Shown here: positions 19,329 through 22,281 of the stretch, in pieces
Layout of the letters: each line of letters starts with the position of its first letter
How positions within the stretch are numbered: the stretch's first letter is position 1
Assembly: GCF_003334315.1 (NCBI RefSeq)
Contig: NZ_QOWR01000064.1
Origin: Escherichia coli
GTDB lineage: Bacteria > Pseudomonadota > Gammaproteobacteria > Enterobacterales > Enterobacteriaceae
DNA: 25,996 nucleotides
Reading direction: 5' to 3' (one strand)
Made by a program: the position numbers and the translations under genes
The notes under the pieces: generated by a model
Databases searched by the model: none
What the model was told of the DNA's origin: nothing
What the model saw: only the letters and a program-made list of their open reading frames with translations

Positions 19329-20285
19329 ATGACAAACTTCACGACCAGCACGCTGCATGACGCATTATTTAAGTCCTTTCTCACGCACCCTGACACCGCG
19401 CGGGATTTTATGGAGATCCACTTACCCAAAGATTTACGTGAACTGTGCGATCTCGACAGCTTAAAACTGGAGTCAGCCAGCTTTGTCGATGAAAAATTGC
19501 GGGCGCTACACTCCGATATTCTGTGGTCGGTAAAGACCCGTGAAGGTGATGGCTATATCTATGTGGTGATTGAACATCAGAGCCGTGAGGATATTCATAT
19601 GGCCTTTCGCCTGATGCGCTATTCCATGGCGGTGATGCAGCGCCATATCGAGCATGATAAACGCCGGCAGCTACCGCTGGTCATCCCGATGCTGTTTTAT
19701 CACGGTAGCCGTAGTCCTTATCCCTGGTCCCTGTGCTGGCTGGACGAATTTGCCGACCCGACTACTGCACGGAAACTTTATACTGCAGCGTTCCCGCTGG
19801 TGGATGTCACTGTCGTGCCAGACGACGAGATTGTGCAGCACCGCAGAGTCGCCCTGTTGGAGTTGATCCAAAAGCATATTCGCCAGCGCGACCTGATGGG
19901 GCTTATCGATCAACTGGTAATATTACTGGTTACAGAGTGTGCTAATGACAGCCAGATAACTGCGCTGTTAAATTACATTTTACTGACTGGCGATGAAGCG
20001 CGTTTTAAGGCGTTTATCAGCGAACTTACCAGGCGAATGCCACACCACAGGGAGCGAATAATGACAATTGCAGAGCGAATTCATAATGATGGATGGCTGT
20101 TGGGAAGGGAGAGGGGGAGGAAAGAAGGGAAAGTAGAAGGGGAACGGAGCCTCCTCCGATTGTTGTTGCAGAATGGGGCCGATCCTGAATGGATACAACG
20201 ATATACCGGACTTTCGGCAGAGCAAATGCAGGCATTAGATCAGCCCTTGCCTGAAAGCAAGCGCGAACCATGGATCGAGTACTAA
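19329..20285 (+). CDS. rpnD: RpnD (YjiP/YjiQ), Rpn/YhgA-like recombination-promoting nuclease (PD-(D/E)xK), apparently intact at 318 aa
   Basis: N-terminal motifs typical of the Rpn/transposase_31 family (HDALFKSFL…, DILWSV…YVVIEHQS); basic, Gly/Arg/Glu-rich C-terminal tail; position between mdtM and yjiR. Confidence 0.8.
20061..20285 (+). CDS. Candidate nested RpnS-like small protein (in-frame C-terminal 74 aa of rpnD)
   Basis: Internal in-frame ATG ([12 protein letters not shown]…) preceded by GGGAG with a 6-nt spacer. Rpn genes are reported to encode such intragenic small proteins that antagonise the full-length nuclease; not verified for this gene. Confidence 0.4.
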
Positions 20286-20527: not shown

Positions 20528-21940
20528 TCATTCCATTGCCTGATACACGGCCTCGCCAATTTGCTTCAGTGCTTCGCGATAGGTTTCGCTGAGCGGCAAA
20601 GCGCAGTTGATGCGCAGACAATTACGGTATTTACCGGAAGCCGAGAAAATCGAGCCTGCTGCCACCTGGATATTCATGCGGCACAGCTGCCGCGCAACGC
20701 AGACCATATCGACCTGTTCAGGCAATTCGATCCACAGTAAAAATCCGCCTTTCGGGCGCGTAATACAGATTTCGCAGGGAAAATATTCCCGTATCCAGCA
20801 GGTATAAAGCGCCAGATTGCGCTGATAGATCTGCCGCATCCGCCGGATATGGCGATGATAGTGACCTTCCAGCACAAACGTTGCCGCCGCCATTTGCGTG
20901 GACGGTACATTAAAGCTGCTGGTGGCATATTTCATATGCAGCAGTTTATCGTGATATCGCCCCGGTGCGACCCAGCCCACGCGCAGGCCAGGTGCAATGC
21001 TTTTACTGAACGAGCTGCACAACAGCACTCGCCCGTCGATATCCCAGGAATGAATGGTCCGCGGGCGCGGATACTCCGTTGCCAGTTCGCCGTAGACATC
21101 ATCTTCAAAAATCACAATATCATGACGCTGAGCGAGAGAGAGAACGGCCCGTTTGCGCGCGTCCGGCATAATAAATCCCAGCGGATTATTACAGTTTGGC
21201 ACCAGAATGATGCCTTTAATCGGCCACTGTTCCAGCGCCAGTTCCAGCGCTTCAACGCTGATGCCTGTTTCTGGATCGGTTGGGATTTCAATCACTTTCA
21301 CGCCCATGCCGCGCAGCATCTGCATTGAACCGTAATAACAGGGGGATTCGACCGCGACAATATCGCCCGGTTTACACACCGCCATTAACGCCATCGACAT
21401 CGAGTTATGGCAGCCGCTGGTGATGATGATGTCATCGGCGGTGACCACCGAGCCGCTGTCGAGCATCAGGCGGGCAATCTGCTCTCGCAACACTCGCTGA
21501 CCGGCTAACAAGTCATAACCGAGAACGGTTTGTAGATTATGCTGCACCACCCGGCTTAGCTCCCGCCACAGCGGTTTCAGGCTGGGCGTTTCGACATCCG
21601 GCGTGCTTTTGCTTAACGGAACAATGGAACTGTCGCTATGCGCCACCAGCATATCCAGCACCTGATCCCACTGGGTAATTTCCACCGGGCGCTGCACCGG
21701 ACGCGTCATCGGCGGTACTGGCGGCTGGGCTTTACGTTGTGCGACAAAATAACCCGAACGCGGCTGCGGAGTGATGAGCTTCATCGTCTCCAGTATCTGA
21801 TACGCCTGCTGCACGGTACTGATGCTGACGCCGTGCTCCTGACTTAAGCTGCGCACCGACGGCAATTTCTCCCCGTGACGATACAGCCCCTGCTCAATCC
21901 GCTCGGCAAGTAGAGTCGCCAGATGTTGATAACGCGTCAT
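20528..21940 (-). CDS. yjiR: YjiR, MocR/GabR-type regulator (GntR HTH fused to a PLP-dependent aminotransferase-like domain), 470 aa
   Basis: N-terminal HTH (YRHGEKLPSVRSLSQEHGVSISTVQQAYQILETMKLI) plus a long aminotransferase fold-type I-like body. Confidence 0.85.
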   Translation of the reverse strand: MTRYQHLATLLAERIEQGLYRHGEKLPSVRSLSQEHGVSISTVQQAYQILETMKLITPQPRSGYFVAQRKAQPPVPPMTRPVQRPVEITQWDQVLDMLVAHSDSSIVPLSKSTPDVETPSLKPLWRELSRVVQHNLQTVLGYDLLAGQRVLREQIARLMLDSGSVVTADDIIITSGCHNSMSMALMAVCKPGDIVAVESPCYYGSMQMLRGMGVKVIEIPTDPETGISVEALELALEQWPIKGIILVPNCNNPLGFIMPDARKRAVLSLAQRHDIVIFEDDVYGELATEYPRPRTIHSWDIDGRVLLCSSFSKSIAPGLRVGWVAPGRYHDKLLHMKYATSSFNVPSTQMAAATFVLEGHYHRHIRRMRQIYQRNLALYTCWIREYFPCEICITRPKGGFLLWIELPEQVDMVCVARQLCRMNIQVAAGSIFSASGKYRNCLRINCALPLSETYREALKQIGEAVYQAME

Positions 21941-21970
21941 GCTGTATTCCTTATTTGGACCATACAGAAA

Positions 21971-22065
21971 GAAAAACCGGTACAGATGAGGCTAAAAAAC
22001 CGGATGCAGATGCTGTTTTAACCTGTCTGTATGTTAAATAAAACTAATATTTGCATCTGTATTGT
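21971..22065. promoter_or_regulatory. Direct-repeat clusters in the yjiR-yjiS divergent spacer (candidate MocR-type regulator sites)
   Basis: Tandem AAAAACCGG-(2-3 nt)-CAGATG repeats (21971-21990 and 21993-22014), and TCTGTAT repeated exactly 30 bp apart (22026-22032 and 22056-22062). Confidence 0.4.
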
Positions 22066-22116
22066 GAACTGCCAGAAGGCAGATGATGAAGCCTCTGAAA
22101 GATGAGGAGGCAGCAG

Positions 22117-22281
22117 ATGGAATTTCACGAAAACAAAGCCAAAACGCCGTTTATCAGACTTGTGCAACTCTGGCAGGCGATGAGGCGTTGGCGGCGGCAA
22201 ATGCAGACCCGACGAGTGTTACAGCAGATGAGTGATGAGCGGTTGAGGGATATCGGGTTACGCAGGGAGGATGTGGAGTGA
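22117..22281 (+). CDS. yjiS: YjiS, DUF1127 small protein (54 aa)
   Basis: MEFHENKAKTPFIRLVQLWQAMRRWRRQMQTRRVLQQMSDERLRDIGLRREDVE*; GAGGAGG RBS 7 nt upstream. Below the ORF-track length cutoff, found by manual translation. Confidence 0.75.
   Translation: MEFHENKAKTPFIRLVQLWQAMRRWRRQMQTRRVLQQMSDERLRDIGLRREDVE

Follow-up and report, generated by a model that had tools for sequence, protein, structure and literature searches.

The 176-bp spacer between the divergent genes yjiR and yjiS of Escherichia coli (positions 21941–22116 of the window, the whole stretch of 25,996 nucleotides that was analysed) carries an array of six short boxes. We consider it probable, with odds of about two in three (0.68), that this spacer is the multi-box operator of the MocR-type regulator YjiR, laid over two weak divergent promoters and enclosing an ArcA site.

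The genes flanking the spacer

The start codon of yjiR, read as CAT on the plus strand, occupies positions 21938–21940, and the ATG of yjiS begins at 22117 (Table 1). Of 5,426 complete E. coli genomes, 3,740 match a 701-bp query around the spacer and carry the annotations yjiR and yjiS for the two genes. The YjiR protein exhibits a GntR domain (Pfam, residues 4–66) fused to an aminotransferase class I/II domain (Aminotran_1_2, residues 130–461), and the lysine of its SFSKS sequence falls on the PLP-lysine motif when compared with solved aminotransferases. Its best NCBIfam matches are the MocR-like families PdxR, YczR, EhuR, MocR, GabR and PtsJ, each below its curated cut-off; PdxR, the top-scoring named MocR family, reaches 265 bits (cut-off 320) and GabR 141 bits (cut-off 600). 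Taken together, the domains, the PLP-lysine motif and these sub-threshold matches identify YjiR as a MocR-subfamily regulator without an assigned subtype. Thus, the gene adjoining the spacer encodes a GntR winged helix-turn-helix (wHTH) joined to an aminotransferase-like domain with its PLP lysine, the neighbour expected of a MocR operator. MpaR from Pseudomonas aeruginosa was considered as a characterised orthologue of YjiR and rejected: it is encoded beside ccoN4 and its paper contains neither PA2032, YjiR nor DUF1127, and we treat it as a different MocR protein. On the other side of the spacer, the yjiS homologues contain PF06568, and the MEFHEN... sequence is kept in all orthologous loci.

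A six-box array in the spacer

The spacer contains six boxes of the ATCTGTAT type, here named B1 to B6, of which B1 points rightward (→), B2, B3 and the degenerate B4 leftward (←), and B5 and B6 rightward again. Read in their own orientation, all six align to nnnATCTGTATnGn and represent one 7–8-bp half-site. Adjoining boxes are separated, start to start, by 20, 18, 24, 22 and 30 bp, that is, by 1.7–2.9 helical turns, which do not clearly correspond to the one or several full turns expected of MocR operators. Five of the 26 occurrences of CTGTAY in the 26-kb window fall inside 121 bp (21942–22062), where about 0.06 would be expected from shuffled sequences. Their TGT core and their mixed direct and inverted order are those described for MocR operators, in which the boxes number two to four and rarely more (PMC5320631).

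Table 1. Features of the yjiR–yjiS region, in window coordinates; box sequences are given in the orientation of each box.
Feature	Position	Strand	Sequence	Remarks
yjiR	20528–21940	−		ORF and RefSeq annotation; 470 aa, MocR-subfamily regulator, GntR wHTH and fold-type-I aminotransferase-like domain
Conserved block	21941–21949		GCTGTATCC	Contains B1
B1	21942–21947	+	CATGCTGTATCCCT	CTGTAT; directly upstream of the yjiR start codon, overlapping the ribosome-binding region
Conserved block	21960–21968		CCATACAGA	
B2	21962–21968	−	TTCATCTGTATGGC	Exact TCTGTAT (plus strand ATACAGA)
Conserved block	21980–21985		GTACAG	
B3	21980–21986	−	CCAATCTGTACTGG	TCTGTAC; core of the first tandem-repeat copy
B4	22004–22010	−	GGTATCTGCATCGC	TCTGCAT; degenerate; core of the second tandem-repeat copy; at the mapped yjiR transcription start
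yjiR transcription start	~22008	−		Deduced from the placement of the ArcA site at −43 to −23 by Park et al. 2013
Likely yjiR −10	22015–22020	−	TAAAAC	Plus strand GTTTTA; −12 to −7 from the deduced start; weak sigma-70 score
Conserved block	22016–22020		TTTTA	
B5	22026–22032	+	CCAATCTGTATGTT	TCTGTAT; first of the 30-bp pair; between −10 and −35 of the yjiR promoter
Conserved block	22026–22033		TCTGTATG	
ArcA box	22031–22051	+	ATGTTAAATAAAAGTAATATT	K-12 sequence; exactly between B5 and B6; published (PMC3798270)
Conserved block	22035–22038		TAAA	
Conserved block	22040–22044		AAAAG	
B6	22056–22062	+	TGAATCTGTATTGT	TCTGTAT; second of the 30-bp pair; overlaps the expected yjiS −35 position
Conserved block	22056–22064		TCTGTATTG	Contains B6
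Candidate yjiS −10	22082–22087	+	GATGAT	NAnnAT
Invariant positions	22083, 22086, 22087		A..AT	Fit −11A, −8A and −7T of a sigma-70 −10
yjiS Shine-Dalgarno	22104–22110	+	GAGGAGG	6 nt upstream of the ATG
Conserved block	22106–22109		GGAG	Shine-Dalgarno
yjiS	22117–22281	+		RefSeq annotation; 54-aa DUF1127 small protein

An earlier note on this DNA had delimited the same spacer and named several repeats in it, every one of which we located in the window sequence. Its tandem imperfect direct repeat is present (AAAAACCGGTACAGATG at 21972–21988 and AAAAACCGGATGCAGATG at 21995–22012), and the TACAGA core of the first copy is near-invariant among orthologous spacers, but the AAAAACCGG part is loosely conserved. 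Since the cores TACAGA and GCAGA are the reverse complements of TCTGTA and TCTGC, this repeat is the same motif as TCTGTAT in the opposite orientation. The pair of TCTGTAT copies also lies 30 bp apart, start to start, as had been noted, a distance that amounts to 2.86 helical turns and not exactly to the three that had been given for it. The array extends beyond the repeats of that list, with further copies at 21942–21947 (CTGTAT) and 21962–21968 (ATACAGA). The inverted repeat CTGCC-N4-GGCAG, which had been counted as part of the operator, did not hold up: this sequence (CTGCC-AGAA-GGCAG, 22069–22082) occurs in only some E. coli and is variable outside the species, and K-12 reads GGTGG in place of GGCAG. 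As a lineage-specific hairpin that is broken in K-12, it was dropped from the element. A seventh CTGTAT, within yjiR (21881–21886), was likewise rejected: it encodes Leu-Tyr and varies synonymously, showing nothing beyond coding constraint.

Conservation of the array across Enterobacteriaceae

A YjiR protein scan restricted to one genome per species yielded 59 loci, none of them from Salmonella. Fifty-seven are orthologues (69–99% identity) from about 15 enterobacterial genera, which include Escherichia, Citrobacter, Klebsiella, Kluyvera, Leclercia, Lelliottia, Silvania, Huaxiibacter, Mangrovibacter, Shimwellia, Pseudescherichia and Pluralibacter. The divergent yjiR/yjiS arrangement was found in all 57 species, with a spacer of 175–182 bp. 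Deletion and pseudogene variants within E. coli (H19, H20) were left aside as recent and uninformative events.

In the alignment of the 57 spacers, the box cores are 98–100% conserved, B4 excepted. The CTGTA of B1 and the CTGT of B3 are invariant, the TAC flanking the latter being 93–100% conserved; the core of B2 is 98–100% conserved, and 7 of the 8 positions of TCTGTATG (B5) and 7 of the 9 positions of TCTGTATTG (B6) do not vary. The spacing is equally rigid. The start-to-start distances along B1-B2-B3-B5-B6 (20, 18, 47 and 30 bp) are identical in 56 of 57 species, with indels falling only outside B1–B6; taken singly, the B1–B2 distance is 20 bp in 56/57 species, and that between B2 and B3 is 18 bp in 54 of the 55 for which both boxes were called. 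TCTGTAT-N23-TCTGTAT occurs exactly, and once per locus, in 54 of the 57. B4 is the exception, with 65–93% conservation per position within Enterobacteriaceae: it is replaced by a forward CTGTAC in three loci of the Klebsiella oxytoca group (L021, L023, L027), and near-copies stand at its position in K. pneumoniae (TGGTGTAC in L012) and in L033 (TAGTGTAC).

As a neutral yardstick, we examined the four-fold-degenerate sites of yjiR in 33 gap-free orthologues, where none of 108 sites was invariant and the mean major-allele frequency was 0.645. Invariant boxes beside neutral sites that are not invariant indicate strong purifying selection on the boxes. The phylogenetic footprint that the earlier note had called for thus finds the repeats kept in the orthologous spacers of some 15 genera, with fixed spacing. 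The overlap of B1 with the ribosome-binding region of yjiR could account for part of the conservation of that box.

The boxes accompany distant YjiR homologues

A more distant set was assembled by searching representatives of 50%-identity clusters and retrieving the contigs that encode them. One homologue of 50% identity (L062) faces a divergent DUF1127 gene across a spacer with GTACAGAT, ATACAGAT, ATCTGTGC and ATCTGTAT at distances of 24, ~23 and ~31 bp. Another, of 41% identity (L066), is preceded by GTACAG, GTACAG, ATCTGTAT and ATCTGTAT at 25, 23 and 31 bp, the contig ending inside the spacer. In both loci the boxes correspond to B3, B4, B5 and B6, with GTACAG/ATACAGAT as ← ← and ATCTGTxx as → →, and from this shared arrangement we infer that the ancestral operator was a four-box array (B3–B6). 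The position of B4 is occupied by a perfect ATACAGAT in L062 and by GTACAG in L066; judged by these counterparts, B4 is a genuine box despite its degeneration in Enterobacteriaceae. Other homologues (42–44% identity), encoded beside EamA or PhzF genes, are accompanied by related CTGT(A/T) boxes in different arrangements.

The presence of the boxes beside the L062 and L066 regulators indicates that the cis-element travels with the regulator gene, and this is the main argument for YjiR as the protein that presumably binds it. The invariance of the boxes leaves no covariation with YjiR, and the comparison of wHTH and box sequences comprises eight homologues and is anecdotal. A search of the literature for YjiR binding studies (EMSA, footprint or ChIP) returned none, and YjiR is listed among the transcription factors still uncharacterised in genomic SELEX work.

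Binding by YjiR is itself a prediction, and the boxes could instead serve another transcription factor. CTGTAT is half of the LexA consensus, which is suggestive of LexA; nevertheless, an SOS box of the form CTGT-N8-ACAG is absent from the spacer even when one mismatch is allowed. Salmonella yjiS has been reported to be SsrB-dependent, so regulators other than YjiR can drive this gene. The boxes, however, are found without exception immediately upstream of a YjiR-type gene, also for distant homologues in unrelated assemblies, and the sites had been attributed to YjiR by comparative genomics in a separate study. Thus, we regard a different binding protein as distinctly unlikely, although it is the best placed of the alternatives.

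An ArcA site between B5 and B6

Part of the spacer has a published regulator. ChIP-seq of ArcA in MG1655 gave peaks in the yjiS/yjiR spacer, at the equivalent of window positions 22011–22026; yjiR was 2.9-fold up in a ΔarcA strain, sigma-70 occupancy was reduced anaerobically, and a predicted two-repeat ArcA box was placed from −43 to −23 relative to the mapped start of yjiR transcription (Park et al. 2013, PMC3798270). Within this box, the first repeat is TGTTA (22033–22037) and the second, 11 bp further on, reads GTAAT in K-12 and CTAAT in the window. This single difference (G to C at 22044) falls in the weaker of the two ArcA half-sites. Only the stretch 22031–22051 fits an ArcA box. Its TAAA and AAAAG segments are conserved across genera; ArcA, promoter elements and a need for DNA bending account equally well for the conservation of the AT-rich stretch from B5 to B6.

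The text of Park et al. allows ArcA sites of two to five direct repeats (PMC3798270), and the whole array could accordingly be conceived as an extended multi-repeat operator of ArcA, or of another global regulator, in which YjiR plays no part; the peaks of phosphorylated ArcA in the spacer and the derepression of yjiR in ΔarcA speak in its favour. The six boxes, however, do not behave as ArcA repeats. They read CTGTAT and not TGTTA, they occur in both orientations, and their spacings of 18–30 bp include no multiple of 11, the phasing of ArcA repeats, whereas the published box is confined to the bridge between B5 and B6. Moreover, conservation is lower in the ArcA half-sites, with 82% at the second T of TGTTA, than in the box cores (98–100%), and the same boxes accompany YjiR homologues of 41–50% identity. 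We regard an ArcA operator spanning the whole array as less probable still than binding by some other factor.

The YjiR operator array proposed in the earlier note is supported in part: the repeats are conserved at fixed spacing, they are kept beside homologues of 41–50% identity, and their TGT core is typical of GntR/MocR sites (PMC5320631). The inverted repeat, however, is not part of it, and the note did not consider the ArcA site.

Promoters and transcription starts

Relative to the yjiR transcription start deduced from the ArcA-site placement (Table 1), B5 lies at −18 to −24, in the promoter spacer, and B6 at −48 to −54, with the ArcA box over the −35 region; B4 straddles +1, with B3, B2 and B1 following in the leader near +26, +44 and +64. 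For yjiS, the candidate −10 is GATGAT in E. coli, other genera mostly having GAAGAT, and a comparable TAAGCT stands 18 nt after B6 in L062. If positions 22082–22087 are indeed the −10, yjiS transcription would start near 22094 and B6 would be centred near −35, with B5 near −65, an arrangement that would suit activation; a start further upstream would put B6 over the −10 and would imply repression.

A scan of the spacer with the sigma-70 consensus returned no promoter and a simple terminator scan no terminator, and a sigma-70 weight matrix applied to the 57 species gave weak, ambiguous candidates for both promoters. Shimada et al. found by genomic SELEX that the RpoD holoenzyme binds the spacer, and suggested a weak promoter for each gene. 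The available supplements of Kim et al. 2012 yielded no transcription start entry for yjiR or yjiS. With both promoters scoring weakly and no E. coli yjiS start found, the sign of yjiS regulation is a guess.

Since several boxes lie in leaders, we also weighed an action at the RNA level, with a B2/B1 hairpin around the yjiR Shine-Dalgarno and a CCUCU/GAGG hairpin masking that of yjiS. In the minimum-free-energy fold of the deduced yjiR leader, CUGUAU does pair with AUACAG around AAGGA; in the yjiS leader, GCCUCU folds onto the Shine-Dalgarno, and CCUC precedes the Shine-Dalgarno in most genera. These folds, however, are no more stable than those of shuffled sequences (z = −0.01 for yjiR and −1.06 for yjiS), the invariant arms show no covariation, and the anti-Shine-Dalgarno is missing in several genera. 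Furthermore, both B5 and B6 precede the yjiR start, and they also precede the start expected from the putative yjiS promoter. No Rfam family matched at its gathering score, the three matches to archaeal C/D-box families (22078–22119) reaching 15–19.5 bits against gathering scores of 45–54, and alifold gave no consensus structure for the yjiS leader, whose alignment is poor. An RNA element is, on this evidence, highly improbable as the reason for the array.

Chance similarity in an AT-rich spacer, to which randomly recurring 6–7-mers, the empty promoter and terminator scans and lineage-specific repeats of the CTGCC-N4-GGCAG class might point, is refuted by the footprint, with its invariant boxes and fixed spacing in 57 species against saturated neutral sites, and may be neglected.

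A proposed model for a YjiR operator

In the operator model that we favour, one winged-helix domain of YjiR would contact one 8-bp half-site, ATCTGTAT. The ancestral core ← ← → → (B3, B4, B5, B6), with start-to-start distances of about 24, 23 and 30 bp, would have been extended in Enterobacteriaceae by two boxes, B2 and B1, on the side of the yjiR start codon, while B4 was left to degenerate. A YjiR dimer, in which flexible linkers would hold the wHTH domains much as they do in GabR and PdxR, may occupy pairs of boxes, the pairing being conjectural. Given the location of B5 in the yjiR core promoter and of B4 to B1 at or downstream of the yjiR start, occupancy should repress yjiR, that is, YjiR would be autoregulated. 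At yjiS, B6 at the expected −35 position and B5 about 30 bp further upstream could mediate effector-dependent activation or, alternatively, repression. From the AT-rich B5–B6 bridge, which it binds, phosphorylated ArcA represses yjiR under anaerobic conditions.

Relation to known systems

A YjiR–yjiS regulon was already predicted in silico in 2016. The 'YjiR - Enterobacteriales' regulog of Suvorova and Rodionov (PMC5320631) has b4340 as its regulator and COG5457, that is DUF1127 or yjiS, as its target, and covers six genomes (E. coli, Citrobacter koseri, Enterobacter 638, Pectobacterium, Klebsiella and Serratia); the entries of that study also pair YjiR with COG5457 in Pseudomonadaceae and Oceanospirillales. 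Compared by regulon membership, that prediction and ours share the regulator, the target family and the approach of phylogenetic footprinting. They differ in that the regulog was built on six enterobacterial genomes, against 57 species here, and its entries neither mark YjiR autoregulation nor mention an overlap with ArcA. [quoted passage not shown] The present analysis adds to this the exact anatomy of the six boxes and the rigidity of their spacing in 57 species; it also identifies an ancestral core of four boxes, excludes the inverted repeat and integrates the published ArcA site.

By analogy, GabR from Bacillus subtilis is the closest mechanistic model for the array. There, one dimer binds two ATACCA direct repeats, whose starts are separated by 35 bp with an AT-rich, bendable bridge in between, and the operator overlaps the divergent gabR/gabT promoters, providing autorepression as well as activation of the target with the effector (PMC4756830). 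The YjiR array resembles it in its box sequence (ATACAG versus ATACCA, two bases differing), in the AT-rich B5–B6 bridge and in its presumed overlap with divergent promoters. It differs in that four to six boxes are present, some in each orientation and at the shorter spacings of 18–30 bp, and in that its target is a gene for a 54-aa small protein and not a catabolic operon. PdxR is a second point of comparison, as the named MocR family to which YjiR scores highest; YjiR nonetheless stays below the PdxR cut-off, no pdx gene lies near yjiR, and the sequence and number of the boxes differ. According to the literature, PLP binding shifts the affinity of PdxR for distinct DNA boxes, and a comparable ligand-dependent re-pairing of boxes is a possibility for the YjiR array. 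With the ArcA box, finally, the likeness extends to 22031–22051: it covers the B5–B6 bridge only, and the six boxes misfit both its repeat and its phasing.

YjiS and the possible role of the module

Of the two genes, for which the earlier note had stated that no effector is known, yjiS now has a described role: its product in E. coli was shown in 2025 to bind PhoR and to dampen both the Pho regulon and phosphate uptake (PMC12501420). Salmonella YjiS is associated with SsrA/B, and bacterial escape from macrophages as well as virulence are affected by it (PMC11707872). YjiR is mentioned in neither of these two papers, and they do not address the control of E. coli yjiS. The box array points to YjiR as the probable control of yjiS, with ArcA acting on yjiR.

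Going further, YjiR and YjiS might form an ancient two-gene signalling module, in which a PLP-dependent MocR sensor of an amino or carbonyl metabolite, redox-gated by ArcA, would set the level of a DUF1127 protein that tunes sensor kinases (PhoR and, in Salmonella, SsrA). The six-box array would then be the switch, dimers re-pairing with ligand between autorepression and yjiS activation. We put this forward as a speculation that, taken as a whole, is more doubtful than not by a wide margin; if it were true, the DUF1127–PhoR axis would have, in the YjiR link, its first upstream signal.

The practical value of the array lies in providing a design basis for binding, reporter and effector work and not in any new kind of mechanism. 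The exact bases to be mutated are the CTGT cores at 21942, 21964, 21982, 22027 and 22057.

Box orientation and spacer variants

Across the loci retrieved with the YjiR protein, one change in the yjiR–yjiS spacer concerns B4, the degenerate reverse member of the six CTGTAT-type boxes (B1 to B6) proposed as YjiR sites. In three loci of the Klebsiella oxytoca group (L021, L023 and L027), this box is replaced by a forward CTGTAC situated 18 bp upstream of B5, and the same place is occupied by TGGTGTAC in L012 and by TAGTGTAC in L033. Since the 18-bp spacing to B5 mirrors that of the B2–B3 pair on the opposite side, one box appears to have switched its orientation over evolution.

In the published ArcA box (PMC3798270), which lies between B5 and B6, the weaker of the two half-sites, the second one, carries a C in this strain at a position occupied by G in K-12 and in approximately 90% of other species. 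The repression of yjiR by ArcA may be weaker in the lineage of this strain.

The spacer varies most at the inverted repeat CTGCC-AGAA-GGCAG, which is restricted to some lineages. K-12 exhibits CTGCCAGAAGGTGG at this position, and the corresponding sequence in other genera is unrelated to the repeat.

Features of the yjiR–yjiS spacer and its surroundings (window coordinates unless a locus is named)
Feature	Position	Remark
Rpn-family recombination-promoting nuclease	19329-20285	upstream of spacer
B4-replacement site (L021, L023, L027, L012, L033)	22004-22014	equivalent position
ArcA half-site variant	22044	C
Inverted repeat	22069-22082	
Rfam snoRNA matches	22078-22119	sR1, sR41, sR23
yjiS leader pairing	22091-22111	GCCUCU with AGGAGGC
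Alternative yjiS ATG	22102-22104	in frame
DUF262 protein	22378-24471	697 aa, intact; downstream of spacer
L063 region	L063:1211-1500	

The yjiS leader and start codon

In the yjiS leader, GCCUCU is able to pair with AGGAGGC over the Shine-Dalgarno (SD) sequence, thereby masking it; the predicted fold is not significant (z = -1.06). The CCUC located ~12 nt upstream of the SD is retained in most genera and absent from several, and some genera show matching changes in the pairing (UCUCC with GGAGA). Weak, sub-threshold Rfam matches to archaeal C/D-box snoRNAs were rejected as spurious, probably arising because GAUGAUGA and CUGA strings look like C and D boxes.

An alternative ATG, five codons before the annotated yjiS start, would give a 59-aa ORF (MRRQQMEFHEN...). 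It lies inside the SD region and is not conserved beyond Escherichia.

Genomic neighbourhood and distribution

The spacer sits in a variable region close to restriction genes that is absent from ~31% of complete E. coli genomes. Two variants affect yjiR (L060 and L061): strain PAR has lost yjiR together with the 5' portion of yjiS through a deletion next to symE, and in another isolate the spacer is intact and yjiR is a truncated pseudogene.

Salmonella, which possesses a yjiS reported to be SsrB-dependent, is not represented among the 59 loci retrieved with YjiR. If Salmonella truly lacks yjiR, the region upstream of its yjiS would constitute a natural test of the dependence of the boxes on YjiR.

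Two loci carry an enterobacterial yjiR and a typical spacer under unexpected labels, namely L001 (Collinsella sp. MAG, Gram-positive; 99% identity) and L034 (Chryseobacterium sp. isolate; 76% identity), which probably reflect mis-binning or contamination of public assemblies. In the low-GC genome of L063, the divergent neighbour of a YjiR homologue (44% identical) is a 45-aa ORF lacking any Pfam match instead of a DUF1127 gene, and the spacer retains ATCTGTAT and ATCTGTCA, 23 bp apart.
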